From IMG/VR virus record IMGVR_UViG_2721755149_000018: a stretch of DNA of 64,000 nucleotides. One strand, given 5' to 3'. Within the stretch, counting starts at the first letter, position 1. Each line of letters begins with the position of its first letter. This DNA comes from an uncultured virus (IMG/VR IMGVR_UViG_2721755149_000018). Taxonomy: Duplodnaviria; Heunggongvirae; Uroviricota; Caudoviricetes. The notes under the pieces are model-generated. The model saw nothing but the letters and a program-made list of their open reading frames with translations, searched no databases and was not told the DNA's origin. Below, in pieces: positions 4,715 to 58,293 of this stretch. The translations under genes and the position numbers were made by a program.

Positions 4715-5143
4715 ATGAGCACCAACCCTTACCCGATCGAAATCCTCAGTGAATACGACGACAACGGCACCATGCCCGAAAACGTGGAAACATTCGCGGA
4801 GGCTGTTGTCGGGCATCGCATCGTGTCCGCGGAGAAGCTGCCGAGAACCCAGCGTTACGGCAGTGAGGATGGGTTGATCCTGACTCTCGACAACGGGACT
4901 CGTGTCGAGTTGGTGGGCGGTTCCGACTGCTGCGCCTACACGGAACTCAAGTCGTTTCTGCTGCATCCTGAGCGGGTGGATCACATCATCACGGGCGTGG
5001 GTACGACCGAGGAGTACACGCGGTGGCACATCTTCGCTGACATGGGTGATGTGCTGGAGCTTGAAGTCGGCTGGTCTGCGGGGAATCCGTTCTATTACGG
5101 GTATGGCTTCGAGATTGATGTTGTGCCGGCGGACGCCGAGTAG
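4715..5143 (+). CDS. hypothetical protein
   Basis: AGGAGG RBS; SDCCA motif. Confidence 0.7.
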   Translation: MSTNPYPIEILSEYDDNGTMPENVETFAEAVVGHRIVSAEKLPRTQRYGSEDGLILTLDNGTRVELVGGSDCCAYTELKSFLLHPERVDHIITGVGTTEEYTRWHIFADMGDVLELEVGWSAGNPFYYGYGFEIDVVPADAE

Positions 5144-10079: not shown

Positions 10080-10456
10080 CCTACCGCATCACCGTGGACA
10101 TGCCGAGGCCCCCGCTGACTTCGAACGATCAGCGGCGCGCACACTGGACGAAAGTCCGCAACGCCAAAGCGGAAGCCGCCAGCCAGATCATCACACTCGT
10201 GAAACGCGACGGGATTCCGTTCATGCTGGACCGCGTGGACGTGACAGTCATCTGGTTCGCACCCGATGCACGTCGCCGCGACTCGGATTCGCTCGGACCG
10301 TACTGCAAGGCCGTTCTGGATGCGCTCGTCGAAGCAGGTGTGCTATGCGATGACGATTCCAGGTATGTCCGCCAAACAGCTATGCGGGTGGAGATCGACC
10401 GTACGAACCCACGGATCGAAATCCTCATCGAACCCATTTACCAGGAGGCAGCATGA
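10076..10456 (+). CDS. rusA: RusA-like Holliday junction resolvase
   Basis: [13 protein letters not shown]...[17 protein letters not shown]. Confidence 0.8.
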
Positions 10457-10620
10457 CGGATGTTTCGGTGACGCAGTTGCGCCGGCACACCACAGACATC
10501 ATCGACCGCGCCGCAGCAGGCGAACGAGTCCCGATCACCCGCAACGGTCGTGTGATCGCCTACGCCATCCCCTACACCGACCTGATCCGACTCACCAACC
10601 TGGAAGGACAAACCCTGTGA
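10453..10620 (+). CDS. Phd/YefM-family antitoxin-like protein (55 aa, not in ORF track)
   Basis: [57 protein letters not shown] coupling on both sides. Confidence 0.75.
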
Positions 10621-11750
10621 AGTTTCGTGTTGACCGTAAAGCCCTCGCAGACACCATCGCCGTGGTAGCGAAGTCCCTGCCCTCGAAGCCCCCGACGCCT
10701 GTGCTGGCGGGCGTGAAGCTCACCGCAGACAGTGGGGTGTTGCGGGTGGAGGGTTTCGACTACGAAACATCCACGCGGGCGCACGTGGTCGCGGACGTGC
10801 TGGACGAAGGCAGTGTCCTGGTGTCAGGGAAGCTGCTGGCGGACATCACGAAAGCCCTCCCGCAGAAGCCCGTAGAAGTCAGCGTCGATGGTGCCCGTGT
10901 CGGGATCGTGTGCGGTAGCGCCAAGTTTTCCCTCCCCACGATGCCCGTCGAAGACTATCCGGCCCTGCCGAACTTCCCCGCCACCACGGGCAGTCTGCCG
11001 ACGGACGTGTTCGAAACCGTGATCGGCCAGGTTGCTGCGGCGGCGGGTAAGGATGACACTCTGCCGATGCTCACGGGCATCAAAGTCGAAGCCGGGAACG
11101 GGGAACTCACGCTTGCTGCGACGGATCGGTTCCGGCTCGCCATCCGCACACTCGACTGGGCGGGCGGCGACGTGAACGCCCTCATCCCAGCGAAAACCCT
11201 CGCCGAGGTCGCCCGCAACGTTCCAACCGGCCTCGACAACGTGGATGTCGGGTTCCATGATGGTCTGTTCGGTGCGGACACGGGCAATGTGTGGACGACG
11301 GCACGAGTCCTGGATGCGGAGTTCCCGAAGTTCCGGCAGCTTCTCCCGACCGAGCACAGCGCGGTAGCAAGCGTGGACGTGCAGGAGCTTGCGGGTGCGG
11401 TGAAGCGTGTCGGTTTGGTTGCGGAGCGGGGCGCCCAGATCCGCCTCACATTCGACGCGGGTTCGCTCACGGTCACCGCAGGAACCGACGGGGAGAGCAG
11501 CGCTGAGGAAACCCTGGCTGCCACGTTCGCCGGCGAACCATTGACCATCGGCTTCAACCCCGGCTACCTCCTCGACGGTCTGAATGTGATCGGCACGGAG
11601 CGGGTGTTGTTCGGGTTCACCACCCCCAACAGGCCCGCCACTCTGCGACCCGTCAGTGAGGACGTTCGGTACACAACCCGCGGACCGTATCAGCCACTCA
11701 AGACCGATTTCGTGTACCTGCTCATGCCCGTCCGACTCCCCAACAACTAG
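10617..11750 (+). CDS. dnaN: DNA polymerase III beta sliding clamp
   Basis: GTG start; [51 protein letters not shown]. Confidence 0.95.
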
Positions 11751-32901: not shown

Positions 32902-33243
32902 TGTTCGAGATGGTTGGGTGGAACGGTGGCGGATGTGAACGAACCTCACCTTTCAGGTTCAAAGCACACCCCACGATCCGTGACCAATCCCCGTGGTTGC
33001 GGGGAGGGTGTTGCTGCATCCGCCACCACCCGACCCGAACATTGACAACACAATAGAGACTTGGCAGTAGGCCCGCACACGCTGCGGGTTAGGAACTGCC
33101 ATGCTGGCCCGCTTCCTAGGACGTGCGCGGTCGGCTGCCGCCAGGGGCGCGTCTGGCCTCAACAACGCGCTTCACTACCCCGCCGCGAGGGACAGAGCGG
33201 AAGCGGCTTGGGTGGGATACCGCACGCATGCGCGTACGCCCAC
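32902..33243 (+). ncRNA. putative structured ncRNA cluster 1 (four folded modules)
   Basis: Nested complementary segments, no credible ORF, begins just downstream of TGG-TAAACT extended -10. Confidence 0.6.
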
Positions 33244-33286
33244 ACAAACCCAACAACACCAACACCAACACCAACAGGAAAACAAC

Positions 33287-33664
33287 ATGGGCGTACGAGT
33301 CCTCCCCTCCATCAACGACCGATTCGACATCTTCCACGACAACGCGACAGGATGGCACGTCGACGACGACGGACGCCTCCACATCCGCGGAAAACGTGGA
33401 AGCGACGGCGCCGCAGGCAACATCGCCACATACAACAAAGACATGTGGTTCTCCGTCGAGGACAACACCAGCCGCGTCGAAGCCTCGGAAAAGGTTGAGG
33501 AGTACCAGTCGCCCGGAACGGATGCCGCCAAGCCTGTAGTGGAATACACCACAGGCACGGTCGCTGTCGAGCATCCAACGGCAACGGTAATTAACAACAC
33601 TTACGAAGCGGATGCCCGTCACGCGGAACGACTGGCGAAGACGCAGCAGTATCGCGCAAGGTGA
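33287..33664 (+). CDS. hypothetical beta-rich protein between ncRNA clusters
   Basis: (CAACAC)n leader, AGGA RBS, ATG 33287. Confidence 0.7.
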   Translation: MGVRVLPSINDRFDIFHDNATGWHVDDDGRLHIRGKRGSDGAAGNIATYNKDMWFSVEDNTSRVEASEKVEEYQSPGTDAAKPVVEYTTGTVAVEHPTATVINNTYEADARHAERLAKTQQYRAR

Positions 33665-33814
33665 TAGCTACCCTGCCCCAGGGTTAAGTGGGGAAGTGGT
33701 CACGGTGCAGCCATCCGGACGGTTGGTGAACACCCGAAACCCCGGCAGCCAGCGCAACACTGCCGACAATTTCATAGCGGGCGTAGGGACTGGACCTCCA
33801 CTGGCGCCCGCCCT

Positions 33815-33887
33815 TGGTGCGTAGCTCAACTGGAAGAGCAGCGGATTCCAAACCCGCCGGTTGCAGGTTCGAGTCCTGCCGCATCAG
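33815..33887 (+). tRNA. trnW: tRNA-Trp(CCA)
   Basis: Acceptor TGGTGCG/CGCATCA, D stem GCTC/GAGC, loop TTCCAAA, T arm GCAGG-TTCGAGT-CCTGC; A31-C39 mismatch. Confidence 0.85.
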
Positions 33888-33891
33888 CAAA

Positions 33892-34147
33892 GACCGACAG
33901 TCGTACCCGCGATGGGTGGCTGGCACCTGAATTGACAGGGCGTGTGCACGACGACCGCGGAAACGCGTGCACACTCGGTCATCAACTTGGGGACGGAAAC
34001 GTGGACACCTTGTGTGTCTCCACCGTTCGAGTGAGGGCGCGCTGAACCCGACACTGAATGACGCTGGGTGCCCCGCAATGCGTCCCCGGCAGGAATGACG
34101 CCCACTGCGCAGCCCGCTTGGCTGCCGGCTTAGCTTCCAATGCCGGG
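33892..34147 (+). ncRNA. putative structured ncRNA modules between tRNAs
   Basis: Multi-way junctions closed by GACCGA/TCGGTC and GGGGACG/CGTCCCC. Confidence 0.55.
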
Positions 34148-34150
34148 TTA

Positions 34151-34262
34151 TGGTGTGTAGCTCAGCGGTAGAGCGTCGTAACGGCAGACGACAGGGTGTA
34201 AACCTCCCCAGCGGAGTCTCCCACTGTTGCGAACGTCGCAGGTTCGAATCCTGCCACACCAA
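34151..34262 (+). ncRNA. tRNA-like RNA with greatly extended anticodon arm
   Basis: Intact acceptor, D and T arms; 47 nt replace the 7-nt anticodon loop. Confidence 0.75.
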
Positions 34263-34517
34263 CGTAGACCGCCCCGGTACTCAGTGCCGGGGCATACGTA
34301 TATCCACAACTCAATACAGGAGCGGCGTGCAGCATGTTCGATGATCTCGACGACTACCGCCCCCACGTCGGGGACTTGGTGACCTTGCCCGACGTGCATC
34401 ACATCTGCCGCATCACCCGCATCCACAAAACACCTATCCCGTATTGCGAGGCAGAGGTGCGTGGTGTGCGGTTCGCCGTCAACCTCTCCACCATCCAACC
34501 CCACCAGGAGCACACCA

Positions 34518-34757
34518 TTGCCTGACATCACCCTGTACTCCAAGCCCGGATGTGTTCAGTGCCGAGCTACCGTCAAGCGGCTGCAACTCAAGCGACTCGA
34601 CTACACGTACGTGGATGTCACCGAAAGCGACGACGCATGGCAGAAGGCCGCACAGTACGGGATCTCCCAGATGCCGATCGTGGTTGCAGGGGATCAGGTC
34701 TGGGGCGGCTACAAGCCCGAAGCGATCGACGCACTCTCGCTGGAGGTGCAGAACTAG
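34518..34757 (+). CDS. nrdH: NrdH-like glutaredoxin
   Basis: TLYSKPGCVQC...PIVV....WGGYKP; AGGAG RBS, TTG start. Confidence 0.9.
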   Translation: MPDITLYSKPGCVQCRATVKRLQLKRLDYTYVDVTESDDAWQKAAQYGISQMPIVVAGDQVWGGYKPEAIDALSLEVQN

Positions 34758-36527: not shown

Positions 36528-36732
36528 CGGCGGTCTGTAGTGCCACATTCGCTGGTGGCCCCCGAAAGGGTTTGCAGCGCCGTGGTGGGGAAGAACGCTG
36601 CCATTTGTGCGCGCACCCCACCCGAGCCCGTGCACACGCCCGCTACCCGTGTGCACGGGCCAAAGCCATTTGCCACACACCTGTACGATAAACACAATCG
36701 AATACGCCGCCCCGGCGAGAAACCAGGACATC

Positions 36733-37722
36733 ATGCGCCACACCTTGACTGTGCTCGTGCTAGCACTTCTCGCCGGTCTCATCCAACTGTTAGCGGCACC
36801 ATCGGCGGGAGCCTGCCCGCAGACCGTGGTGATCGGTGTCGACGGCACCGGAAGCGTCGGGAACACGCCGAGTCTCGTCACCCAGCATGCCGATCCGTGG
36901 ATCGCGGAAGGTGCGGAGTTTCGGCGCATCGACTACCCCGGAAGCATTTGGCCCATCGGCCCGTATCCGTACGACCAGTCACGGCGTGACGGTATCGACG
37001 CAACCAAGGCTGAAATCAACGCTGTGCGCCGAGATTGCCCCGACACACACATACATCTAGTCGGCCATTCACAGGGCTCGGCAGTGGTCGGTGATGCTCT
37101 CGAAGAGCGCACCGCAGCCGGCGAATCCAACACCAACATCAGCGCAGACCTGTACGCCGACCCGCGCCACCCCGACACCGGCCTCGAAGTCGTCCTACCC
37201 GGCGCACTGCCCGGCTACACGCTCAAGGGAGAACGTGGCAGCACTGGCGAAGCGAAGGTGTATCAGCAGTGCGTCCAAGGCGACCCCATATGCGATTTTC
37301 CCCAGCCTCTCCAAGATCCGCTCGGACTCATCGACGCGCCCGCAGGGTACTGGTACAAGCACGGCTACCACCTCCCCGATTCACCCGAGCCCCGCAGTGG
37401 TACGCACGTCATCCCCGCAGGACCCATGACGCCGTTCATCCCGCCCGTGGAACAACGCCAGATCCCGTTCGCGCCCGAACTGCGTGACCTGGTCGACTAC
37501 GACGTGCCGACGCTGCCTGATGTGCCGCCGCTCCCGAACTTGACTGAGCCGTACGTGGAACGACCGTTGAGCGTCTACGTGCCCGATCGCGTGGAGCCGT
37601 ACGTGCCCGCGCCGATCCTCGATCATGTGCCGCCGCCGCTCCCGCAACTCCCGCCCCTGCCCGTCATCGAACTGCCCCCACTTCCCGCGCTACCCCAACT
37701 GCCTGCACTGCCCGCCCTGTAA
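36733..37722 (+). CDS. secreted cutinase/PE-PPE-like serine hydrolase with Pro-rich tail
   Basis: Hydrophobic signal peptide ending AGA; GHSQG; CVQGDPICD; HGY. Confidence 0.8.
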   Translation: MRHTLTVLVLALLAGLIQLLAAPSAGACPQTVVIGVDGTGSVGNTPSLVTQHADPWIAEGAEFRRIDYPGSIWPIGPYPYDQSRRDGIDATKAEINAVRRDCPDTHIHLVGHSQGSAVVGDALEERTAAGESNTNISADLYADPRHPDTGLEVVLPGALPGYTLKGERGSTGEAKVYQQCVQGDPICDFPQPLQDPLGLIDAPAGYWYKHGYHLPDSPEPRSGTHVIPAGPMTPFIPPVEQRQIPFAPELRDLVDYDVPTLPDVPPLPNLTEPYVERPLSVYVPDRVEPYVPAPILDHVPPPLPQLPPLPVIELPPLPALPQLPALPAL

Positions 37723-39895: not shown

Positions 39896-40390
39896 ATGCC
39901 CCCACGCCGAGGCCACACCCAATCCATCGAAAAACGCACCGACATGGCAGAAAAACAACGTCATGCACTAGAGTTGCGCAACGCCGGCCGCAGCCTCCAA
40001 TTCGTTGCAGACATCTATGGTGTCGACCAATCCACCGTGTCGCGCTGGTGCTCCGCCGCGATCAAAGACATTCCGCGTGAAGCCGCCGAAGAATTCCGGC
40101 AACGACAGTTGTTGCAGTTGGATGCCATGCTCGAAGCGATCTGGGATGACGTGGTTAGCGGGAATCAGCTCAAGATCGATCGGGCACTCGCAATCCTCGA
40201 ACGCCAAGCCAAACTCACCGGCCTCGAAGACCTCGCCAAAATCGAAGCCTTGAAGGCAGCCAAGGGCGACGCCGGCGTAGAAGCCGAATCCATGATCGGC
40301 ACACTCATCGACGGACTCAAAGCCGCCTACGTCAAACAAAAAGAACGCGCAACATCCGACGTGGACGACCTCGACGGAGACGACGAGTGA
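39896..40390 (+). CDS. terminase small subunit (HTH)
   Basis: ALELRNAGRSLQFVADIYGV..STV; ERQAKLTGL; directly upstream of terL. Confidence 0.8.
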   Translation: MPPRRGHTQSIEKRTDMAEKQRHALELRNAGRSLQFVADIYGVDQSTVSRWCSAAIKDIPREAAEEFRQRQLLQLDAMLEAIWDDVVSGNQLKIDRALAILERQAKLTGLEDLAKIEALKAAKGDAGVEAESMIGTLIDGLKAAYVKQKERATSDVDDLDGDDE

Positions 40391-41709
40391 CACTTCCGGC
40401 GCTACCACTCTCGCCGAAACAGATCGCATCAATCGTAGAAGCCGAAGACCACCGACTCACCATATGGTCAGGTGCAGTCCGCGCCGGGAAGACCATCGCC
40501 AGCATCGTCGCGTTCTTCATCGCGGTCAAGAAGGCACCTGACTCCGGTCTCATCCTGATCTGCGGGCGCACCTTGCAGACCATCGAACGCAACATCATCG
40601 AACCGATGCAAGACCCCGCGATCTTCGGAAAGCTCGCATCGGCAGTGCAGCACACCCGGGGCTCATCCACGGCAACAGTGCTCGGTCGGACTGTGCACCT
40701 CATCGGCGCCGCTGATGTGCGCGCAGAAGGAAAACTACGCGGCCTTACGGCGTGCCTCGCAATGGTAGACGAGGCGACACTACTGCCTGAGGAGTTCTTC
40801 ACACAGTTACTCGCGCGACTCTCCGTCCCCGGCGCCAAGTGCTATGTGACCACCAACCCAGGATCGCCGGCAAGCTATCTGAAAAAGAAGTTCATCGACC
40901 GCATGAACGAACCCGACATGAACCTTCGGGTGTGGAACTTCATGATGGACGACAATCCCTCACTGTCACCCGAGTACATCGCGGCAACAAAAGCCGAGTT
41001 CACGGGATTGTTTTACATGCGAAATATTGAGGGCCGGTGGGTGTCAGCCGAGGGTGGCGTCTACGACATGTTCGACCACGAAAAGCACATCATTCCACGT
41101 GGCGACCTACCGCAGATGCAGCAGCTCATAGCCTGCGGAATTGACGTTGGTGCCACGAACCCAACTGCGGCCGTACTGCTGGGCCTGGGGGTGGATAACT
41201 GCCTCTACATCGTCGACGAGTGGTACCGGAAACCGTCGTCAAGTGAAGCATCATGGTCGGACGTTCGCCTATCCAAGGCGCTTCGGGAATGGTTAGCCGC
41301 CGACCACATTCCGCAAACCGACTTGGAACCGAAGTACATCATCGTGGACCCCGCTGCAAAGCACTTCCGGGACCAACTACTCGAGGACGGCGTCAAAACA
41401 GTCGCCGCCAAGAACGATGTACTCGAAGGCATTCGAACGGTCTCCAATTTGTTCTCCACGGAGCAGTTGAAGATCAGTGACCATTGCCATCGGTTGCTTG
41501 AGGAATTGCCAGATTATCGTTGGGACCCGAAGGCCACGGAGCGTGGCGAGGATGCCGTTATCAAGACTAATGATCACGCCGTCGATGCTATGAGGTACGC
41601 CACATTTACGACTCGCAGGCGTTGGAAGCCATACCTGAAAGCCCTTCCAGCGACCGATGCGAACGACTTCGACAGCGATCCACACAGCAAAGCAATCGGG
41701 AAGTATTGA
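40387..41709 (+). CDS. terL: terminase large subunit
   Basis: GAVRAGKT, VDEA, TTNP, GIDVG, DPAA, DHAVDAMRY. Confidence 0.95.
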   Translation: MTLPALPLSPKQIASIVEAEDHRLTIWSGAVRAGKTIASIVAFFIAVKKAPDSGLILICGRTLQTIERNIIEPMQDPAIFGKLASAVQHTRGSSTATVLGRTVHLIGAADVRAEGKLRGLTACLAMVDEATLLPEEFFTQLLARLSVPGAKCYVTTNPGSPASYLKKKFIDRMNEPDMNLRVWNFMMDDNPSLSPEYIAATKAEFTGLFYMRNIEGRWVSAEGGVYDMFDHEKHIIPRGDLPQMQQLIACGIDVGATNPTAAVLLGLGVDNCLYIVDEWYRKPSSSEASWSDVRLSKALREWLAADHIPQTDLEPKYIIVDPAAKHFRDQLLEDGVKTVAAKNDVLEGIRTVSNLFSTEQLKISDHCHRLLEELPDYRWDPKATERGEDAVIKTNDHAVDAMRYATFTTRRRWKPYLKALPATDANDFDSDPHSKAIGKY

Positions 41710-41852: not shown

Positions 41853-42698
41853 TTGAGTAGCCATGCTACATGCTCTGTCGACGGTTGCAACAATGACCAC
41901 CGCGCCCGCGGTCTCTGCAGTGGTCATTATCAGAGATTGCGCAACACTGGGGACGTGCAGGCAGATAAGCCATTGCGTCAGACTATCGCGCCAACCGAAC
42001 GGTCTGAAACGTGCATCGTCGATGGATGTGACCGCGAGTCCAGGCTAGCCAACCTGTGCGGTGCACACCATCAGCGGAAGATTAGGTTTGGCGATGTGCA
42101 GGCGCACATCCCGCTCCGTCGATCGGCAGCGAAGGATGACGGAACGCGCTGGTGTTCACGCTGCGAGGAACTGCACCCACTCGACGCATTTATGCCGGAC
42201 AGCAGAAACCCAAGTGGCCTATCTGGAGTTTGCCGCGATTCCGACCGTGAATACCGGCGCAAGAACTGGCATAAGTATGCGCCCTACAAGCGTGAGTGGT
42301 ACCACCGCAACAAGGAACATGTGAGGGCCAGGGAGCGTGCGCGTCGTGCCGCAATGGACCCAGAAGAGCGACGTCGCAAAGACCGGAAATGGCGCGAGAA
42401 CAATCCAGAGAAAGTTGCTGCGATAATCCGGCGCCAGAATGCAGTCCGCTCGAAGCGGGTCCGCAACGCGGTCGGTGAGGCAACTACCGCGCAAGTACGG
42501 GCGCGCTGGGACTACTACGGCGGGAAGTGCTGGATCTGTGGGCGCGACGCGACCGACATGGATCACGTCAAGCCGATCGCCGCCGGCGGAAGTAATTGGG
42601 CGTCAAACTTGAAGCCCGCATGCCGCTCATGCAACCGCGCCAAGAGCGCGAAGTGGCCGTTCAAGCCTGAGGATATCGCTCACATTTGGGCTGCCTGA
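41853..42698 (+). CDS. HNH endonuclease with repeated N-terminal Cys/His motifs
   Basis: C.VDGC...LC..H.QR twice; CWICG...DHVKP...GGSN...NL...CRSCN..K. Confidence 0.9.
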   Translation: MSSHATCSVDGCNNDHRARGLCSGHYQRLRNTGDVQADKPLRQTIAPTERSETCIVDGCDRESRLANLCGAHHQRKIRFGDVQAHIPLRRSAAKDDGTRWCSRCEELHPLDAFMPDSRNPSGLSGVCRDSDREYRRKNWHKYAPYKREWYHRNKEHVRARERARRAAMDPEERRRKDRKWRENNPEKVAAIIRRQNAVRSKRVRNAVGEATTAQVRARWDYYGGKCWICGRDATDMDHVKPIAAGGSNWASNLKPACRSCNRAKSAKWPFKPEDIAHIWAA

Positions 42699-42758: not shown

Positions 42759-43001
42759 GTGTCCCTCGCTGACGAACTTGAAGTAGCCACCAAGCGGCGC
42801 TCCCGCCCCTGCCTCACCGCAGAATGGCTCAACACACAAGATGAGCGGGACAACGCAGCCTTCGCAGAGTTCCTGTCCAGCGGAGGACACATGAGCGCCC
42901 TCTACCGGCGCTGCACCAAATACGGACTCGACGCAGGACTAACCCAATTCAAGGATCACTGCCAGCGTCGATGCTCCTGCCACCGCGGGTCCGCATCATG
43001 A
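42759..43001 (+). CDS. small Cys/His protein coupled to phosphoesterase
   Basis: AAGGA RBS; C-terminal HCQRRCSC. Confidence 0.65.
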   Translation: MSLADELEVATKRRSRPCLTAEWLNTQDERDNAAFAEFLSSGGHMSALYRRCTKYGLDAGLTQFKDHCQRRCSCHRGSAS

Positions 43002-44131
43002 GCCTCGCCGACGACCTCCTCAAGCAACCCACCGCAGAAGAGGTTGCATACAAGCCCCGTACTGAATTCGACGGCGTAGAGGGCGGCTACATTCAGACCG
43101 GGGCACTGCCAGAGCCCCCGAAGTCGCACGCCGAACTGTTGGAGTTCTTCGGATACGACCCGGCCGAAGTGTGTGTCGTGGGTGAGCCTCGCGTATCCCG
43201 CTGGCAGACCTACGATGAGCGTTGGCTTGCGTCGTACCGATTCCAGATCGCCCCGAAGGTCGCTGGTCCGAGCATCGATGAACTGATCGATGACATCAAG
43301 GACCGGAAACGCCACGAGGCGACCAGGGCATCCACGTCAGGCGTGTTCGTCTACCAGGCCGGCGACCTCCAGCTCGGAAAGATCGACGGCGACGGCGTGT
43401 CCGGAACTGTGGATCGCTACTTTGCCAGCCTCGAACGTGCTGTCGCCAACTTCAAGTCGCGTTCCGCTACCGAGTCTATCGGTGCTGCACATCTCGTTTT
43501 CGTCGGTGACTGCATTGAAAACGGAGGGGTATCCCAGGGGGGGAAGTTGGCTTGGCGCCAGTCCCTCACTGTTACCGAGCAGGTGCGGCTGTGGCGACGA
43601 ATTCTGCTCGAAACCGTGAAGGAGTTCGCTCCTCTCGTGGACGAACTGAAGGTGTCGGTGGTGGGTGGCAACCATGATGATGCGACCCGCACCCCGGTTC
43701 AGACACGCGCTGACGACAACTGGGCCACCGAGGGCGCCATTCAGGTTTCCGATGCGCTAGCGGCCAACACTGCGGCGTTTGAGCATGTTGCCGTGCAGGT
43801 TCCGCCGAAGGATCAGGGCTACATGACCGTTGGTGTCGGGGACAGTGTCTTCACGCTGCTCCACGGACATCAGTTCCGGAAGGGACGTGCCGCGGAGTGG
43901 TGGGCGTCCCAGTCATTCCATATGGGAAACCCTGCCGGCGCGCATTTTCTGTGCCACGGGCATTGGCATGAACTTGGTGTGCAGCAGACCGCTTCTCGTA
44001 CCATCATCTGCTCTCCGACGTTCGACGGCGGCAGTGCGTGGTATCGAGACAAGACGGGCGCAGAGTCACGTCAGGGTGGGCTTGTGTATGTCACTCGCGG
44101 ACCTGAGTTCTCTGGTCTGTCGTTGATCTAG
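42998..44131 (+). CDS. Mre11/calcineurin-like metallophosphoesterase
   Basis: GDLQLGK, GDCIE, GNHD, HGH, GHWH. Confidence 0.85.
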   Translation: MSLADDLLKQPTAEEVAYKPRTEFDGVEGGYIQTGALPEPPKSHAELLEFFGYDPAEVCVVGEPRVSRWQTYDERWLASYRFQIAPKVAGPSIDELIDDIKDRKRHEATRASTSGVFVYQAGDLQLGKIDGDGVSGTVDRYFASLERAVANFKSRSATESIGAAHLVFVGDCIENGGVSQGGKLAWRQSLTVTEQVRLWRRILLETVKEFAPLVDELKVSVVGGNHDDATRTPVQTRADDNWATEGAIQVSDALAANTAAFEHVAVQVPPKDQGYMTVGVGDSVFTLLHGHQFRKGRAAEWWASQSFHMGNPAGAHFLCHGHWHELGVQQTASRTIICSPTFDGGSAWYRDKTGAESRQGGLVYVTRGPEFSGLSLI

Positions 44132-44197: not shown

Positions 44198-45919
44198 ATG
44201 GGTCTTCCCGAAGGTTCGACTAGCGCACCGTGGCCCCCGAAGCCGTTCGACACCGCACAAGACCAATTCCAACTCTGGAACGCATGGTTCTCCAACGACA
44301 CTGATGCGTTGTACGAGTGGTATTCGCAGCCAGGCGCCCACGCACGACCCTCGCAGTATGCGGGCGGCATCGTCGGTCGGGTGGCGCGGTTCTTCTGGGG
44401 TCGTCCGATGCAGCAGGCGACGAAGCGCATCCATGTGCCGGCAGCCTCGGATATTGCGCGTACGGGCGCGGATCTGCTGTTTTCGCAGCCTCCGCAGTGG
44501 GTGCTGTCGGAGTCGGATGTGAAGGGCGGAAAGGCGCAGTTCGAGGCGGCGCAGAAGCGACTTGAGGTGTTGCTCGAATCGTCTGATGTGAACGCGACCC
44601 TTCTGGAGGCGGCGGAGATTCAGGCCGCACTCGGCGGCGTGTACCTACGTTTGTGGTGGGATAAGGATGTGACCCGCAAAGTCATGCTGTCCGCGGTGGG
44701 TGCGGATGGTGCGATCCCCGAATGGCGGTACGGGCAGCTCGCGGCGGTCACGTTCTGGACCGAATGGAAAGACGAAAAGTCCGGTGTGTGGCGCCACCTG
44801 GAACGGCACTCACCCGGTTTCATCGAACACGGCCTGTACAAGGGCGATACAGACACCCTCGGCAGGTTGATGCCGCTCACTGACCGTACCGAAACGGAGT
44901 GGGCGGCCGACCTGGTCGACGCCGAGGGCCGCATCCCGACCGGTGTTAATGGGCTCACCGCTGCCTATGTGCCGAACGTGCGGCCCAGTCGCATGTGGCG
45001 CAGCATCCCCGGGCTCTCACTGCTCGGACGCTCCGACTACGACGGGCTTGAGCCACTGTTCGATGCCCTCGACGAAGCGTGGACCTCGTGGATGCGGGAC
45101 ATTGACCACGGCAAGTCCCGCCTGTTCGTCGATGCCGAAGCACTCGAAGACAATGGCCCTGGTCGTGGCGCGTCGTTCGACCCCGAACAGCCCGTCTACA
45201 CCCCGGTTCCGCGCCCCGGTTTGGGTGATGATCCGACCCGCAGCCTGGTGGAGGCGCAGCAGTTCACGATCCGCTACGCCGAACACCATGCCACGGTGAA
45301 GGATCTTATGACCCGCATCCTCGTCGGCGCCGGCTACTCCGTGTCCGACTTCGGTGACGATGAAATGTCGTCCGCAGTCACCGCAACCGAAATCAACGCC
45401 CGCAAGGATCTCTCCAACCGCACCCGTTCCAAGAAGATCGGCTATTGGCGTTCGGGGATGGAAGAACTTGCCCGAACCATGCTCGAACTCGACGCCGTGG
45501 TGTATGCGGATGGGCGGGAAACGCCGTTTGAGGTGGTTGCGAATCCGGAGNNNNNNNNNNNNNNNNNNNNNNNNNNNNNNNNNNNNNNNNNNNNNNNNNN
45601 NNNNNNNNNNNNNNNNNNNNNNNNNNNNNNNNNNNNNNNNNNNNNNNNNNNNNNNNNNNNNNNNNNNNNNNNNNNNNNNNNNNNNNNNNNNNNNNNNNNN
45701 NNGACGGAGACTCGTGTGCGGACGATTTGGCCGAACTGGTCGAACGATCAGGTGCAGGAGGAGTTGGAGCGCATCAAGGACGATCGAAAGCTGGACGATA
45801 TGCCTTCCGAGTTCGATACTCCCACGTTCGGCGGCGGTACTGATGAAGCTGAGTTTGAGCCGCCGACCCGCCCCGAGGGTGACATGGGTGCGGACGGTGA
45901 CGAACTCGACGGTGCCTGA
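44198..45919 (+). CDS. portal protein
   Basis: Position and size; YVPN...LGRSDY...D.LDE.WTSW; TATEI. Confidence 0.9.
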   Translation: MGLPEGSTSAPWPPKPFDTAQDQFQLWNAWFSNDTDALYEWYSQPGAHARPSQYAGGIVGRVARFFWGRPMQQATKRIHVPAASDIARTGADLLFSQPPQWVLSESDVKGGKAQFEAAQKRLEVLLESSDVNATLLEAAEIQAALGGVYLRLWWDKDVTRKVMLSAVGADGAIPEWRYGQLAAVTFWTEWKDEKSGVWRHLERHSPGFIEHGLYKGDTDTLGRLMPLTDRTETEWAADLVDAEGRIPTGVNGLTAAYVPNVRPSRMWRSIPGLSLLGRSDYDGLEPLFDALDEAWTSWMRDIDHGKSRLFVDAEALEDNGPGRGASFDPEQPVYTPVPRPGLGDDPTRSLVEAQQFTIRYAEHHATVKDLMTRILVGAGYSVSDFGDDEMSSAVTATEINARKDLSNRTRSKKIGYWRSGMEELARTMLELDAVVYADGRETPFEVVANPEXXXXXXXXXXXXXXXXXXXXXXXXXXXXXXXXXXXXXXXXXXXXXXXXXXXTETRVRTIWPNWSNDQVQEELERIKDDRKLDDMPSEFDTPTFGGGTDEAEFEPPTRPEGDMGADGDELDGA

Positions 45920-48049: not shown

Positions 48050-48967
48050 ATGGCTAATACCTTTCTCACCCCTGACGTTATCGCCGCCAAGGCTCTCGCC
48101 ACCCTCTACGAGAACCTGACGATGCTGCCCCTCGTCTACACCGACGTGTCCAGTGACTTCTCGCGCAGCAAGGTCGGCTCCGTCGTGAACGTGCGCAAGC
48201 CCGCCACCTTCACCGCGAACGAGTTCGATCGCGCCTCCGGTATCACCATCCAGAACGCCACCGAGTCCAGCGTGCCGGTCACCCTGGACAAGATCGCTGA
48301 CGTGTCGTTCGCCGTCACCTCTGAGGATCTGACCCTGCACCTCGAGGACTTCGCGGCGCAGCTCCTCGCCCCCGCCACCGAAGCCATCGCCCAGAAGATC
48401 GACCGGGACATCCTCGCCCTCAAGTCGAACGTCACCCAGGTTGCGGGCACCGGCACCGGCTTCGAGTGGACCAAGCCTGAGGCGCTGATCGAAGCGGATC
48501 GTCTCCTCAACATCAAGAACGTTCCCCCGTCGGAGCGTGCCGCCGTTGTCGGTCCGACCACGCGGGCGAACTGGCTGAACAGCGACATCATCAAGTTCGC
48601 CGACAAGTCCGGTTCCACCGATGCGCTGCGTCGCGGTTCCATCGGTTCGGGCCTGTTCGGGTTCGATGCCTACATGACGCAGAACGTTGCGCAGCCGGCC
48701 CAGTCCCCGACCACGGGCCAGCCGACCACCGAGGTTGGTGTTGCGTTCCACAAGACCGCGTTCGCGTTCGCGTCGGCCCCGCTGGCGCTCCCATCGGACA
48801 CCGGCGAGTGGGCTGCCACCCAGTCCTACAAGGGTCTGAACCTGCGTGTCGTCAAGTCGTACGACATCTCGAAGAAGCAAGATGTGATTTCCGTGGATGT
48901 TCTCTACGGTGTCGACGTTCTGGATGCGAACCGCGCTGTTCTGCTGCGTGGCGCTCTCGCTGCCTGA
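48050..48967 (+). CDS. major capsid protein
   Basis: MANTFLTPDVIA; G..V.VRKP; D.LYG; followed by terminator. Confidence 0.92.
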   Translation: MANTFLTPDVIAAKALATLYENLTMLPLVYTDVSSDFSRSKVGSVVNVRKPATFTANEFDRASGITIQNATESSVPVTLDKIADVSFAVTSEDLTLHLEDFAAQLLAPATEAIAQKIDRDILALKSNVTQVAGTGTGFEWTKPEALIEADRLLNIKNVPPSERAAVVGPTTRANWLNSDIIKFADKSGSTDALRRGSIGSGLFGFDAYMTQNVAQPAQSPTTGQPTTEVGVAFHKTAFAFASAPLALPSDTGEWAATQSYKGLNLRVVKSYDISKKQDVISVDVLYGVDVLDANRAVLLRGALAA

Positions 48968-52626: not shown

Positions 52627-55600
52627 ATGACAGCAGGACCGTTTAGCGCAGGTAGTGCTCATCTTTTTGTGAAGCCTCGCCTGGCCGCCGGGTTCACCCA
52701 GCAGCTCCGCACTCAACTCAAATCCGTCAACGTCGAACACAAAGTCTCCATCGTCCCCAACATTGCGGGGTTTCAGCAGAAACTCAACACCGCAGTCAAG
52801 TCCGCGAACGCCAACGTCAAAGTTGGTCTCAAGCCGGACCTGACCGGGTTCCAGACGAAGCTGAATGCTGCTGTTCAGGGTGTGAACGCACCCAAAATCA
52901 AGGTGCAGGTCAACCCCGACATCACCGGGTTCAAGTCGAAGCTGAACGCGGCACTCGGCGGAGTTAACACCCCCACCGTCCGGATCAAGATCGCCCCCAA
53001 CCTTGCCGGATTCAAGACCGCACTGAACACGCAACTCGCCACAATGGGCGGCACCCTCAAGATTAAACCCGACCTGGACTTCACCCAGGCGAACGCACAG
53101 CTCGCCACGTGGCGTGCCGCGCAAGGTGCTGTACCGCTGTCGTTGAGCGTCAACCTTGACACTGGTGCTGCGATGGTCCAGTTGGCGACTCTGCGCACCA
53201 TGCTTCGCAGTATCGACCTCGGATCTGTGGGCGCCGGCACGCTCGGTGGCGGTTCCGGTTCCGGGCGTAGTGGTGGCGGCATGATCCGTCGTATCCGCGT
53301 CCAGATGGAACTGGACCGGGCGTCAGTTGCTCGCGCAGAATCCGAGTTGGCTCAGGCCACGTCCCGCATGGAACAGTCCCGCACTCGGCAGGCCGATGCC
53401 GCCGATCGGGTCGTGTTGGCAGAGCGCCGTTTGGCGGATGCTACGTCCCGGCACGGTGCAACATCCACCCAGGCATTAGCGGCATCGCAGAGCCTTGCGC
53501 GGGCGCAACGCACCCTCGCAGACCGCAGCGGTGACGCTGCCCGGTTCCTGGGCGCACAGGCAGACGCACACCGCCGGCTGCGGCAAGCGCAGAATGACCA
53601 GAACAGCATCAGCCGCCTGGTGCGCGCTGGCTTGACCGGTATCGCCGAATCTGCGATCAACGGTGCCACGTCCCTGTTGAGCATGGTGAATCCTGCTGGC
53701 CTGGTCAAAACCGGGCTGATGGCGCTCGCCGGGGTTTCGCTGATCCCACTGTTGGGACAGTTGGCGCAAGCCGCTGGTGTTATCGCACTCCTCCCCGCGA
53801 TGGGCGCTGCCGCTACCGCCTCGATCGCCACCATTGCTGTCGGTTCCACGGGGATCATGGATGCGTTCAAGGCGGCAGGTGAGGCATCGGCGTCGTCCGC
53901 GAAGGATGCTGCGGCGAACGCGAAGAAGCAGGCGGATGCTGCTCGCCAGGTTGAGGACGCCGAACGTGATGTTGCGGATGCCCGCGACAATGCAGCGCAG
54001 ACAGCGAAGGACGGTGCCCGCCAGATCGCGCAGGCGGAACGCCAGGTGCAGGACGCTCAGGAACGCACCAAGGATGCGCAAGAGGATCTGACTCGCGCCC
54101 GCAAGGACGCCAAGGAACAGATCGAAGACATGAACCTGGCGCTCAAGGGTTCGGCGATCGATGAAGAAGACGCCCTTATCGCGCTCGAACGCGCCCGTGA
54201 ACGCCTTGCCGAGTTGGGTAAAGACGGCCAGCCCGTCACCATGCTTGATCGTCGCGAGGCCGAAAACAATGTGCGGCAGGCGCAGCAGCGCATCGACGAA
54301 GTTCGGGAACGCAACAACGACCTGAGGCTCGAAACCGAAGCCGCCAACAAGGCTGGCGTGGAGGGTGCTGCGCAGGTTGTTGCCGCCAAGGAAGGTGTTG
54401 CTGACGCCATTCAGGCGGAGAAGGACGCGCAGGAAAACCTGGGTGTCACGCAGGAGAATGTGGCGCGTCAGAATGCGCAGGCACAGCGTCAGATCGAGGA
54501 TGCACTTCGTCGTGTGGCGGATGCGCAGGCGAATCAGGCAGAGGCTCTCGCTGAAACGTCGTCTGCTGTCGATAAATATAATGAGGCGTTGGCGAATCTG
54601 TCGCCTAATGCCCGCGATTTTGTGGAGAAGACTCGCGCCCTTGGTGATGCGTGGAAGGAACTGCGCCTGTCGGTGCAGGATTCCTTGTTCGACGGTATGG
54701 GCGCCAAGATGCAGGAGCTTGGCGGAAACTATATTCCGATCCTGACGAGCGGCTTGACGGGTCTTGCTGATGTGTTGAACGGCAGGATGCGTCAGGCGAT
54801 GGATTGGCTGAACGGCACTGAGGTCCAGAACGATATTTCGGCGATCCTAGATAACACGGCTGAGGCTTTGGGGCCGCTGCTCGACGGGCTGGGCAATATT
54901 GGTCGGGCACTGCTGGACATCGCCACGGTTGGTTCGGAACTGCTGCCTGAGGTGACGGGCGCGTTCGCGGACGGCACTAAGGGCTTTGCTGACACGATCC
55001 GCGAGATGCGCGATAACGGCGAGCTTGAGAACTTCATGCGCGAAGCGATGGACACGTTCGCACAGATTTGGCGGATCATCAAGAACATTGGCGGTATCAC
55101 GTCAAGCCTGTTCACGGGTTCCGATGATCTCGGTGAATCGTGGCTCGACAGCATCGAAAAAGCCACCGCGCGGTGGAAGGAATTCCTCGCCACCCCCGAA
55201 GGCCAGGAGGAAATCAAGAAGTTCTTCGCGGATGTGAAGGCCATTGTCGATGGCATCGTTACGGCCATCAAGATCGGCGCCGGCATCCTTGGAACCTTCC
55301 GCCCCGCTGATGACAACCCGACGGATGATCCGGTCCTCGACCCTCGCGGCAATGATGGCGGGGCGACCGGTTACGGAAGCCGTGAACCACTGCCGCCAGG
55401 TAAGACCCCGGAACGTCTCAGACCGGGCGCTGCGGGACAGGCTGGCACGCTGCGTCAGGGTTGGGATGCTGCCGACAACTCCGACAGTTGGATCGGCAAG
55501 ACTGCTCGCGGGTTCAACTCGTTCTTCGGCTTCAACAACGAAACCGACTCGTACGACGGCGGCATGTGGAACCCCAATACCGAAGGCACCATCGCGGACC

Positions 55601-58293
55601 GGGTTGGCGACCACTTCGAAGAGATGGGCCGCGAATGGCAGGTGTTCACCGACAAGATCGGCACCACCTGGGAAACGATCACCGGATGGGTCGGCAACGT
55701 CAAAGACTCCGTCGTCGACCTCGGTAAATCCATCAAAGAATGGGTTCAGGACAAGGCGTCCGCTGCGTGGACCTGGCTGTCCACCAAGGTCGGCGAAGCC
55801 CGCGAGTTCATCGGCACCAAGATCGAAGAACTCAAAACCGGCATCAGTGACCTCCGCCAGAACATCCAGGACAAGGTCACGGACGCAATCGGATGGTTCA
55901 CGTCACTGCCGACAAAGATCGGTGAAGCGTTCCGCACCATCATCGACGAGCACTTCCCGTGGCTTGGTGGCGCGCTCGACACCCTGTCGTCCACCTTCGA
56001 CCGTGTCGTAAACGGTATCGGCTCCATCTGGGATGGACTCAAATCCAAGCTGGCATCCCCGATCAACTGGGTGATCGACACCGTTTTCAACAACGGCATC
56101 GTCAAATTCTGGAACGGCATCGCCTCCAAAATCGGGCTCCCCAACATTGACCCCATTGGGTTGATCGGGGACGGTGCCAGCAGTGGCGTCGGATTCGACA
56201 AGGTGAAAGCCTTCGCCCGTGGTGGCACCGTCGATGGTGTCATGTCCGGCTACTCGCCTGGTCGGGATGATCGGATCATCGCCGTCGGTGGTGGCGAAGC
56301 CGTCATGCGTCCCGAATGGACCCGTGCCGTCGGCCCCGACTTCGTGGAAAACGCCAACGCCGCAGCCCGTGCAGGTGGTGTAGCTGGCGCCCGCAAGTTC
56401 ATGGGGTACTTCGCCAACGGCGGCATCGTTGAGTCGATGGAAGCTGTCGTCCGCAAACACTTCCCGATGCTGTTGACCAACGACCGCGCCTTCTCCGGGC
56501 TCCGGTTCACCGACGACGGATACCACTCCAAGGGTATGGCCGGTGACTTCTCTAACGGTGGAGACGCCGGCACCCCGGAGATGAAGGCGTTCGCCAGCTA
56601 TGTGGCGGATGAATACCAGAACCGCACCCTCGAACTGATTCACTCGCCGTTCGACCGCAACATCAACAACTACAAGGATGTTGGGGACGGTTTCGGGTTC
56701 TACGGTGCCGGAACCATGAATCAGCACCGCAACCACGTGCATTGGGCTGTCGACGGCCCAGTGGGTGAGGGTGGGGCGCCTGATCCGTCGCTGTGGGACA
56801 AAATCAAGTCCGGTGTGGGTGGGGCGATCGGGCGGGTGTCGACGTTCTTCCGGAACCTGGTCGCGGATCAGTTCGAGAAGCCCATCAACGCTTTGGGGTC
56901 GACGATCCCGAATCAGTTCCCCGGTATCGGTGAGTTCGGGTTTGTGCCCAAGAAGATGTACGACACCCTGACGGGTAAAGCCTTGGATTGGGTGCGCGGC
57001 AAAGCCGAAGCCAAGGACAACGCCGCGGGCAGTACGGGTTCGTCGGGTGCACCGCTGGGCGCGTTCGGTGGCAACAGCATGGATTATGCGCGTGAGATCG
57101 TGGAGGCCGCGAAGGAACGCGGCTTGCCGTCGAAGGCCGCGAAAATCGCCCTGATGACCGCGATGGCCGAATCCAGCCTGAAGATGTGGGCCAACAACTC
57201 TGTCCCCGAATCGATGGAGTTCCCACACGACGCCGTCGGCTCCGACAATGACAGTGTTGGTTTGTTCCAGCAGCGGAACGGTTGGGGCACCGTCGAACAA
57301 CGCATGAACCCGCGAGCCTCCGCAGGCATGTTCTATGACGCGCTCATGGGTGTGGACTGGAACAGCATGTCGCCCGCGCAGGCGGCACAAGCGGTGCAGC
57401 GTTCCGCATTCGCCGATGGCAGCAACTATGCGGCACACGAAGCACGCGCCGACGAGTTGGTAGCCCAGTTGTACGATGCGGGCGGCATCATCGAACCCAA
57501 CAAACTCGCCGTCAACCTCTCCGGCAAACCCGAAGCCGTCTTCACCAACGATGAATGGATGCTCATCCACGAGCTGGTGCGGCTCCTCGGCATGACCGAC
57601 TTCATCGACAAGCTCGCCGCCACCGATGGTCCGAAGGAACTGTCCGGGGAAGACATCACCGGACTCAAATCCCCCTACGGCACAGGCGCCGGAACAGTTG
57701 CGGCAGGCGGGTATACTTTACCTACGGGAGAACTGTCCCAGGATCTCCGTGCATTCGACAAACTCCACGGCAACCAGTCCAGTGGTGCAGGCGGAACTGG
57801 TGGATCAAAGTTCCCTGCGTTCGGTTCCCCCGAACACTTGCAGCAAGCCGGCGCCATCTTCCAAAACGCCACATCAACGTTCGCAGGCAGGGCACGCGAC
57901 GCCGGAATGCAATTCCTGTCCGGCTGGATACCCGACGAACTCATGAACCCCCAAGGACTCGTCGGCGGACTCATCTCCGCAGACAAAGAACTGTCCGGAT
58001 GGTTCGCACAAAACCACGGCACCCCCGACATTTTGAACGACCCTATGGGATCGCTCGGGCAAATCGCAGGCGGATTCATCGGTGGCGGAACACCCCCACC
58101 CATGCCCACCATCGACCCCAACGCCGTACAGCAACAAGTCGACTCCCTCCGCAACAACGCACCCGCGCAAACCAGCGGAGGAACCACCGCAACCGGAGAC
58201 ACCTACCACTTCCACGTCTCAAACGTCGACGAAGCATTCCGGCGCTTCCAAGTCGAACAAGCAAAAAAGGCCGCAACCTTCATCGGCCGCTAA
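52627..58293 (+). CDS. tape measure protein with two putative peptidoglycan-hydrolase domains
   Basis: 1888 aa, Ala-rich coiled coil, W/F periodic repeats; YHSKGMAGD...HRNHVH and AES...SVGLFQQR domains. Confidence 0.95.
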   Translation: MTAGPFSAGSAHLFVKPRLAAGFTQQLRTQLKSVNVEHKVSIVPNIAGFQQKLNTAVKSANANVKVGLKPDLTGFQTKLNAAVQGVNAPKIKVQVNPDITGFKSKLNAALGGVNTPTVRIKIAPNLAGFKTALNTQLATMGGTLKIKPDLDFTQANAQLATWRAAQGAVPLSLSVNLDTGAAMVQLATLRTMLRSIDLGSVGAGTLGGGSGSGRSGGGMIRRIRVQMELDRASVARAESELAQATSRMEQSRTRQADAADRVVLAERRLADATSRHGATSTQALAASQSLARAQRTLADRSGDAARFLGAQADAHRRLRQAQNDQNSISRLVRAGLTGIAESAINGATSLLSMVNPAGLVKTGLMALAGVSLIPLLGQLAQAAGVIALLPAMGAAATASIATIAVGSTGIMDAFKAAGEASASSAKDAAANAKKQADAARQVEDAERDVADARDNAAQTAKDGARQIAQAERQVQDAQERTKDAQEDLTRARKDAKEQIEDMNLALKGSAIDEEDALIALERARERLAELGKDGQPVTMLDRREAENNVRQAQQRIDEVRERNNDLRLETEAANKAGVEGAAQVVAAKEGVADAIQAEKDAQENLGVTQENVARQNAQAQRQIEDALRRVADAQANQAEALAETSSAVDKYNEALANLSPNARDFVEKTRALGDAWKELRLSVQDSLFDGMGAKMQELGGNYIPILTSGLTGLADVLNGRMRQAMDWLNGTEVQNDISAILDNTAEALGPLLDGLGNIGRALLDIATVGSELLPEVTGAFADGTKGFADTIREMRDNGELENFMREAMDTFAQIWRIIKNIGGITSSLFTGSDDLGESWLDSIEKATARWKEFLATPEGQEEIKKFFADVKAIVDGIVTAIKIGAGILGTFRPADDNPTDDPVLDPRGNDGGATGYGSREPLPPGKTPERLRPGAAGQAGTLRQGWDAADNSDSWIGKTARGFNSFFGFNNETDSYDGGMWNPNTEGTIADRVGDHFEEMGREWQVFTDKIGTTWETITGWVGNVKDSVVDLGKSIKEWVQDKASAAWTWLSTKVGEAREFIGTKIEELKTGISDLRQNIQDKVTDAIGWFTSLPTKIGEAFRTIIDEHFPWLGGALDTLSSTFDRVVNGIGSIWDGLKSKLASPINWVIDTVFNNGIVKFWNGIASKIGLPNIDPIGLIGDGASSGVGFDKVKAFARGGTVDGVMSGYSPGRDDRIIAVGGGEAVMRPEWTRAVGPDFVENANAAARAGGVAGARKFMGYFANGGIVESMEAVVRKHFPMLLTNDRAFSGLRFTDDGYHSKGMAGDFSNGGDAGTPEMKAFASYVADEYQNRTLELIHSPFDRNINNYKDVGDGFGFYGAGTMNQHRNHVHWAVDGPVGEGGAPDPSLWDKIKSGVGGAIGRVSTFFRNLVADQFEKPINALGSTIPNQFPGIGEFGFVPKKMYDTLTGKALDWVRGKAEAKDNAAGSTGSSGAPLGAFGGNSMDYAREIVEAAKERGLPSKAAKIALMTAMAESSLKMWANNSVPESMEFPHDAVGSDNDSVGLFQQRNGWGTVEQRMNPRASAGMFYDALMGVDWNSMSPAQAAQAVQRSAFADGSNYAAHEARADELVAQLYDAGGIIEPNKLAVNLSGKPEAVFTNDEWMLIHELVRLLGMTDFIDKLAATDGPKELSGEDITGLKSPYGTGAGTVAAGGYTLPTGELSQDLRAFDKLHGNQSSGAGGTGGSKFPAFGSPEHLQQAGAIFQNATSTFAGRARDAGMQFLSGWIPDELMNPQGLVGGLISADKELSGWFAQNHGTPDILNDPMGSLGQIAGGFIGGGTPPPMPTIDPNAVQQQVDSLRNNAPAQTSGGTTATGDTYHFHVSNVDEAFRRFQVEQAKKAATFIGR

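Follow-up and report, generated by a model that had tools for sequence, protein, structure and literature searches.

A tRNA-like gene with 47 nt in place of its anticodon loop in an uncultured siphovirus

The locus described here raises the question of what a gene with the body of a tRNA may do for a phage when it lacks a loop with which to read codons. The gene lies at 34151-34262 on the + strand of a 64,000-nt stretch of DNA (hereafter the window) from an uncultured virus of the Caudoviricetes, IMG/VR record IMGVR_UViG_2721755149_000018. An earlier note, made from the letters alone, had singled it out as a tRNA-like RNA in which a structured insertion of 47 nt takes the place of the anticodon loop. 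Non-decoding tRNA look-alikes of phages have been known since the T4 era with their roles unexplained, and tRNA-targeting immunity is now an active field. The element belongs to this old, unexplained kind and not to a new one, and it is a clean actinophage case, in which the tRNA body is intact and the decoding loop alone is replaced. On balance, we lean toward regarding it as a maintained tRNA mimic, that is, an RNA that would be processed and stable and would not decode.

A tRNA body without a usable anticodon loop

The Rfam tRNA model (RF00005) matches exactly 34151-34262 on the + strand at 52.1 bits (gathering threshold 29), with E values of 2.6e-8 for the whole window and 2.9e-10 for a 701-nt region. 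The alignment runs through model positions 1-71 of 71 with no non-canonical pair flagged, and 47 nt (34181-34227), shown in it as '[47]', occupy the seven anticodon-loop positions. The acceptor, D, T and anticodon stems are all perfect. The acceptor stem TGGTGTG (34151-57)/CACACCA (34255-61) is Watson-Crick at 7/7 pairs; the D arm, as read from the sequence, is GCTC-AGCGGTA-GAGC, the anticodon stem TCGTA/TGCGA, the variable loop ACGTC, and the T arm GCAGG-TTCGAAT-CCTGC. The tertiary positions are all present (U8, A14, G15/C48, G18G19, A21 and G26/A44, and further G46, G53-T54-T55-C56, A58 and C61), and position 9 is A. The discriminator is A34262, and CCA is not encoded. The minimum-energy fold of 34151-34262 is the cloverleaf, and 6 of 200 shuffled sequences are as stable as the whole element (z -1.88). 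The acceptor stem, D arm, 5-nt variable loop and T arm of the earlier note are all found in the sequence, and the Infernal/Rfam search that it proposed returns its coordinates to the nucleotide.

With default settings, ARAGORN misses the element and calls tRNA-Trp(CCA) at 33815-33888 as the sole tRNA of the window. When introns are allowed, it returns a 'tRNA-Cys(gca)' whose 38-nt intron lies at 37/38 and whose loop, CGGCAGG, has G at position 33. The ARAGORN check suggested in the earlier note is thus blank in one mode and forced in the other, and both outcomes are a warning for annotation: the default overlooks the element, and intron-tolerant settings give it a wrong label. A search of the whole window with Rfam at E ≤ 1 yields two tRNA-type matches, tRNA-Trp and the element, together with a sub-threshold THF match elsewhere.

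The likeness of the body to the neighbouring tRNA-Trp, from which the earlier note had proposed a duplication, is confirmed by alignment, with identities of 6/7 in the acceptor 5' strand, 8/8 in the D stem and 16/17 in the T arm. The step from likeness to descent is less secure. In a contig of a public wastewater run (X6), an ordinary Asn(GTT) arm with the loop CTGTTAA sits between the same D and T arms. Genome contigs searched for the element's tRNA body with a gap of 20-50 nt give three ordinary Patescibacteria tRNAs, which are Asn or Ile and are uninformative on the host; with a gap of 40-70 nt there are no matches. Because the same arms occur on Asn and Ile tRNAs, the body type is generic, and descent of the element from tRNA-Trp is possible.

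To describe what removal of the insert would leave, all solutions were enumerated in which a 5-bp anticodon stem is correctly spaced from the D and T stems, one contiguous insert is removed and a 7-nt loop remains. U33 is found in none of the 16 solutions: position 33 is C in all eight on the normal stem, and G or C in the eight on a shifted stem, to which the ARAGORN solution belongs. Neither directly nor after one excision, therefore, does the element present a 7-nt loop with U33 and a purine at 37. In this respect the earlier note was correct, both in placing A/C at positions 32/33 and in stating that no normal tRNA would result. It was also correct that the insert (38-47 nt) falls far short of a group I intron, for which about 200 nt with a P3-P9 core is the minimum; that candidate is rejected, and neither Intron_gpI nor any other intron or ribozyme family in Rfam matches at E ≤ 10 within 33700-34400 or at E ≤ 1 across the window. 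A bulge-helix-bulge intron is likewise rejected, since the 4-bp helix AGAC/GTCT of the insert, with unpaired flanks of 4 and 3 nt, bears only a faint likeness to one, and cutting at these flanks would leave a 9-bp stem and a loop of ~8 nt, not 5 bp and 7 nt. A Pfam scan, which covered the proteins of the window only (61, scanned as 20 + 41) and not those of the remaining phage genome or the host, found no RNA ligase, RtcB, EndA-like splicing endonuclease, Ro/TROVE protein or CCA-adding enzyme. Since none of the 16 excisions gives U33, no group I intron is matched and no splicing or ligase gene is present among the 61 proteins, the element is not an ordinary intron-bearing tRNA.

Other RNA classes fare no better. 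A transfer-messenger RNA (tmRNA) is rejected, as ARAGORN finds none in the window, position 3-70 is G-C and not G3-U70, and both D and anticodon stems are present. A YrlA/Y RNA is rejected also: RF02553 has no match on 34151-34262, and its weak match (15.9 bits, gathering 69) falls at 33838-33964 instead. At E ≤ 10, the only families of Rfam 15 that overlap the element are RF00005 on the + strand and Plastid-ycf2 on the - strand, the latter at 15.7 bits (gathering 65.7). Coding was considered as well, because an ATG-started open reading frame (ORF) of 64 codons (34150-34344) spans the element; its GC contents at codon positions 1, 2 and 3 are 0.57, 0.58 and 0.58, and it has no Shine-Dalgarno sequence. 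The three ORFs that overlap the element have flat values of 0.48-0.67 at the three positions, whereas the neighbouring genes have third-position values of 0.69-0.80; the element is therefore non-coding.

The enlarged arm, its relatives and the surrounding locus

The place of the anticodon stem-loop is taken by an arm of 57 nt (34176-34232), delimited by pair probabilities. At its base is a 9-bp stem (34176-84/34224-32) with two G-U pairs and seven pairs at a probability of at least 0.99, in agreement with the extended anticodon stem of the earlier note. Above it are the helix AGAC/GTCT (34186-89/34216-19), with probabilities of 0.85-0.90, and a tip for which the energy model gives GGG 34194-96/CCC 34207-09 (~0.7). 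Tandem G-A pairs (G34190-A34215 and A34191-G34214) with C34192-G34213 may form between helix and tip. A canonical K-turn is rejected, as no register places a 3-nt bulge beside a Watson-Crick C-stem. The insert is present once in the window, and blastn-short finds no second copy there or in the fetched loci (best match 13 nt, E 0.078); being unrepeated, it is not taken for a mobile element.

In the long stem, the first five bases of the 3' strand are CTGTT (34224-28), the same as positions 32-36 of the Asn(GTT) loop CTGTTAA; this loop occurs on the same body type in one X6 contig and in locus L088. As a speculation, an older anticodon loop may be buried in the helix at 34224-28.

Among 50,697 phage records, megablast and blastn find nothing beyond the tRNA-Trp region and a T-arm match of 24 nt. 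IMG/VR viral contigs contain neither the 39-nt insert in its exact form nor a 24-nt pattern from it (N at 34197); in the Joint Genome Institute (JGI) metagenome contigs, that pattern has one locus, 100% identical to the window. Used as bait, the protein encoded by 33101-33664 yields no relatives.

Contigs of four public runs were also laid on 33600-34600. A 160-nt contig of X6 is identical over 34111-34270. In a bioreactor run (X5), a 374-nt contig at a depth of 112 joins 33671-33700 to 34152-34271 with 11 differences over 120 nt, continues with 18 other letters, and then enters the spacer 33912-33977 described below. A relative diverged by ~9% thus keeps the element together with its insert, in the first RNA slot of the locus, ahead of the spacer, as befits a maintained unit. 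The contigs of a further run (X7) do not cover 34144-34381, and no conclusion is drawn from them for this part.

Among the itemised changes in the X5 relative, four fall in the arm, one in the variable loop (34234 C>G), and none in the D or T arms. Two of the four AGAC/GTCT pairs are broken by 34216 G>T and 34219 T>C; this helix of the earlier note is therefore present in the window but loses half of its pairs in the relative, with no compensation listed. The wobble pair T34179-G34229 becomes a mismatch by 34229 G>C. The fourth change, 34197 T>C, bears on the tip, which the earlier note had drawn as a Tyr-like hairpin AGG-GTGTAAA-CCT or, alternatively, as GGT-GTAA-ACC with a GNRA loop. Both can be drawn on paper, but the energy model prefers GGG/CCC, and the change removes the U33-like base of the former and the closing pair T34197-A34202 of the latter. 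The decoy for anticodon nucleases that was proposed from the Tyr-like loop is weakened by this change and by the instability of the tip. We infer that the other six differences lie within ~12 nt of the ends of the piece, because the tool lists differences in other contigs up to 13 nt from the ends. When the five changes are applied in silico, the stability of the arm falls from -17.7 to -10.0 kcal/mol and the fold is altered. In the 5' two-thirds of the insert (34182-34215), one of 34 nt is changed.

Around the element, ~650 nt are non-coding, from the early (replication) genes to a small ORF (34334-34525), behind which lies an NrdH-like gene; this RNA locus separates the early genes from the late (lysis and structural) genes. 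Its parts, all on the + strand, are best seen by comparison with L002, the one syntenic IMG/VR record, which was found through the LysB-like protein of the window, is 85 kb long and 90% complete according to CheckV, and is 78-99% identical in blocks. It is also the sole match of the spacer patterns in IMG/VR viral contigs. The first slot of the window holds the ordinary tRNA-Trp(CCA) (33815-33888; ARAGORN; Rfam 59.8 bits), behind a leader (33770-33814) with a hairpin GCGGGCG...CGCCCGC that alignment shows to be identical in L002. Between the two slots is the conserved spacer (33912-33985), recognised in the L002 alignment and in contigs of X5, X6 and X7. It contains a nested hairpin, GTGTGCACG..CGCG-GAAA-CGCG..CGTGCACAC at 33942-33974, which none of 100 shuffles equals, which the window and L002 share at 100% identity, and which is kept in X5, X6 and X7 despite changed flanking cargo. 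This hairpin could serve in processing or termination, as an operator, or as an anchor for recombination. A non-coding leader without Rfam match (33986-34150) then precedes the element, and 33914-34139 and 34000-34138 are nearly identical in contigs of X6 and X7 (2 other letters each). Directly after the element is a GC hairpin, CCCCGG-TACTCAGTG-CCGGGG (34267-34292), which has no T-run, has a counterpart at the same place in L002, and is likely to be a factor-independent terminator. A scan of 33400-34500 for consensus promoters and terminators finds none of either.

L002 and the window have in common the slot-1 leader and the spacer, both 100% conserved, as well as the downstream hairpin and the ORF, and differ in both cargoes. 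In L002, slot 1 (4913-4986) holds a different tRNA, 'Leu(caa)', at 49.1 bits and with a 5-nt variable loop. The gathering mode of Rfam missed this tRNA, and blanks in that mode are not relied on here. Despite its anticodon CAA, it does not belong with the long-arm Leu tRNAs; genes similar to it carry a tRNA-Leu annotation in Mycobacterium phages Tourach and Douge and in Gordonia phage GodonK. Slot 2 of L002 (5089-5234) holds another tRNA-like RNA of 146 nt, with a 7-bp acceptor stem TCGACCG/CGGTCGA, the T arm CGTGG-TTCAAGT-CCACG and an encoded CCA. In its minimum-energy fold, ~74 nt are inserted in the D region, and the anticodon arm gives way to a tetraloop hairpin. It is not called as tRNA or tmRNA by ARAGORN or Rfam, and nothing in cultured phages matches it; L002 as a whole has a single tRNA-model match.

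The locus thus consists of conserved leaders and spacers that frame interchangeable RNA cargo, namely an ordinary tRNA, the mimic described here, and a different mimic in L002. The motif AGACCG follows both cargoes of the window and both of their counterparts in L002, and this junction could mediate cargo swaps. Such modularity suggests accessory, swappable RNA functions, as is often the case with counter-defence genes, and offers a usable experimental handle. A further block identical in the window and L002 (33664-33700) contains the stop codon of ORF 33101-33664 and a hairpin CCCTG-CCC-CAGGG after it; in the X5 relative, 33700 is joined directly to the tRNA-like element.

Comparison with other tRNA-like RNAs and possible roles

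The design is not unique and recurs in IMG/VR phage contigs. A pattern in which the D arm and T loop of the element stand 50-80 nt apart (normally ~26) matches 79 IMG/VR loci with 58 distinct middles. The set is mixed, comprising nested or partial tRNAs, long variable regions, and 12 middles that, like the window, keep a closing anticodon stem; by a rough script, excision would leave U33 and a purine at 37 in the loop for seven of these 12 and not for the other five. Of eight loci examined with Rfam, seven are tRNAs at 46-54 bits in which 32-54 nt replace the loop or the whole anticodon arm, and one (L066) has no tRNA match.

Several of these loci have features of their own. Five of them (L006, L056, L061, L075 and L079) show recurrent phage tRNA bodies with a conserved anticodon-arm insert ..TCATGGYGAAGGRCCWAAT.., the hairpin of which, GGY-GAAGG-RCC, differs from member to member in both of its strands (GGT/ACC and GGC/GCC); this hints at a selected structure. 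A motif common to the insert of the window and the IMG/VR insert family 'TCATGGYGAAGGRCC' (GGT-loop-ACC) was considered and rejected, as the architectures differ. In L029 a 7-nt loop, GTTACGA, closes a long and nearly perfect hairpin that forms the anticodon arm, and in L055 the acceptor, D and T arms are nearly those of the window element and a different piece of 46 nt replaces the whole anticodon arm.

A limited literature search found no paper on an actinophage tRNA with an insert replacing the anticodon loop. Among the nearest known RNAs are RNAC and RNAD of T4, which are tRNA-like in fold and are processed like tRNAs. As with the element, which lies beside tRNA-Trp and has a non-decoding shape, they are encoded in a phage tRNA locus; no kinship in sequence is expected, and they differ in the phylum of the host and in that the element keeps a full four-arm cloverleaf with only the anticodon loop replaced. 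They are described as small non-coding RNAs (species 1 and 2) beside phage tRNA genes, with roles unknown (PMC3014915, PMC9697503), and RNAC is not mentioned in PMC2330249. With the canonical tRNA of RF00005 the element shares its four stems, variable loop and tertiary positions, and it differs in having 47 nt for a 7-nt loop and no recoverable U33 loop. In architecture it equals the engineered 'tRNA scaffolds', in which a structured RNA is grafted at the anticodon arm of an intact tRNA body and gains processing and stability; those, however, are laboratory designs. YrlA is likewise a tRNA mimic outside decoding, but the ends of the element are at the acceptor stem and not at the opposite end, and the 61 window proteins scanned include no Ro/TROVE protein. 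Finally, Devoto et al. 2019 describe tRNA genes of Lak megaphages as carrying 'enigmatic' introns (PMC6784885). These also are short anticodon-region inserts with no known splicing route, but tRNAscan assigned a type, an anticodon and an intron to them, whereas the element yields no canonical tRNA. Lak, moreover, is a 540-kb megaphage of Prevotella, and the phage of the element is of high GC and, judged from its relative, would measure about 85 kb.

If the element is a maintained mimic, the following course of events may be envisaged. The locus would be transcribed rightwards together with tRNA-Trp, and the intact top half and elbow (acceptor, T and D arms) would lead to a 5' cut by the RNase P of the host. 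Trimming of the 3' end and a CCA-adding enzyme, which is proposed because the element encodes no CCA, would complete a product of ~112-115 nt. With the irregular 57-nt arm for an anticodon stem-loop, this RNA would be unable to read codons and could still be bound by factors whose recognition of tRNAs depends on the acceptor end and elbow. Our preferred use for it would be that of a competitor or decoy for immune effectors or toxins of the host whose target is the acceptor end or 'tail' and not the anticodon, such as tail-cleaving nucleases, or the nucleotidyl-, pyrophospho- or acetyl-transferases of the acceptor end that are common in actinobacteria. Alternatively, the tRNA body may merely stabilise and present the inserted arm. 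Published work includes tRNA-directed immunity, with cleavage of tRNA tails among its forms, and counter-measures by phage tRNAs. Granted a non-decoding mimic, the decoy mechanism is still somewhat unlikely. The complete picture, in which a natural 'tRNA scaffold' decoy would soak up effectors that recognise the acceptor end, tail or elbow and so shield the host tRNAs, with phages of this lineage swapping mimics in one cassette slot according to the defence met, appears improbable.

Several observations weigh against a maintained mimic or its use as a decoy. Nothing links the element to any defence system, and anticodon nucleases would not be diverted by a decoy that lacks an anticodon loop. 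L002, the closest complete relative, does not have the element, which is thus dispensable. There is one natural variant, that of X5, with 5 of its 11 differences itemised; it shows no covariation, as 34216 G>T, 34219 T>C and 34229 G>C all hit predicted pairs and are uncompensated as listed. The apparent pattern of a conserved body and a variable arm rests on counts (0/34 and 4/57 changes) too small for significance. The 57-nt arm alone is matched in stability by 46 of 200 shuffles (z -0.84). Since the arm folds no better than shuffled sequences and the variant breaks its pairs, the detailed structure of the insert is not beyond chance, whereas the tRNA body is so by far. The lack of covariation, the three broken pairs, the arm stability, the absence from L002 and the swapping of cargo would all suit a dead Asn- or Trp-like tRNA gene, disabled by insertion or rearrangement in its anticodon arm and carried passively in a recombination-prone cassette locus, in which case CTGTT at 34224-28, the first five bases of the Asn loop, may be a relic. 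A dead gene would hardly be expected, however, to have four stems and its tertiary positions intact at 52 bits, with no D- or T-arm change listed in the variant, nor would it account for the unrelated anticodon-less tRNA-like RNA in the same slot of L002 or the similar designs in other phages. Phage genomes, besides, rarely retain dead DNA. Because the diverged X5 relative, at high depth, keeps the element and its insert in the other slot, and X6, from a third study, holds it unchanged, the gene is probably not dead, and we regard this explanation as unlikely.

A working tRNA gene with a short phage intron of the 'enigmatic' type, which some cut-and-rejoin activity would remove to give a tRNA for Cys(GCA), Ala, Thr or Ser, would agree with the intron-tolerant ARAGORN call, with the seven of 12 stem-closed IMG/VR inserts that can be excised to a proper loop, and with the unpaired flanks of AGAC/GTCT, and mechanism-less short introns have a precedent in what is reported of Lak tRNAs (PMC6784885). 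Yet the near-universal U33 is missing from every excision, with C33 throughout on the normal stem; the shifted stem not only has G33 or C33 but requires two bases between the D and anticodon stems; cuts at the bulges would yield a stem and loop of the wrong size; and the 61 window proteins scanned include no candidate ligase or splicing endonuclease. Discriminator A73 is, in addition, at odds with Cys identity. An intron thus seems quite unlikely. It has also to be considered that the tRNA shape is purely a processing signal, recruiting RNase P and 3' trimming to cut the leader 33889-34150 or an operon transcript, with the released piece having no role. The position of the element, at the end of a ~260-nt conserved non-coding leader (nearly unchanged over 33914-34139 in X6 and X7 contigs) and directly before a hairpin and the next gene, would fit this. 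For such cutting, however, an ordinary tRNA would suffice, as would a minimal mimic with acceptor and T arm, and this leaves the full D arm and the kept 47-nt insert unexplained, and the X5 relative has the element in the other slot without that leader; we consider a pure processing signal very unlikely.

The phage and its probable host

The window represents an uncultured siphovirus of a high-GC host. It encodes a large terminase (40387-41709), a portal protein (44198-45919), a major capsid protein (48050-48967), a tape measure protein (52627-58293) and the LysB-like cutinase/PE-PPE protein (36607-37722), in addition to DnaB/primase, beta-clamp, ThyX, WhiB and NrdH-like proteins. The nearest cultured phages by portal are Gordonia phages, VanLee at 45% and Morgana at 54.1% identity, the latter over 76% of the query. 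These portal matches and the LysB-like gene point to a mycolic-acid actinobacterium as the probable host. Morgana has no tRNA-type match and no tRNA feature within 40000-87539. Identical DNA is found in groundwater runs, which may be its source, and parts of it in wastewater, bioreactor and soil runs; none of the public runs listed as containing it is an RNA run.

Two further genes of the window may be mentioned. An HNH endonuclease gene of 281 aa (41853-42698) follows that of the large terminase and precedes those of an exonuclease-like metallophosphatase (42971-44131) and the portal. The homologue of the DNA polymerase III beta clamp (10266-11750) has ~117 extra N-terminal residues before its first clamp domain.

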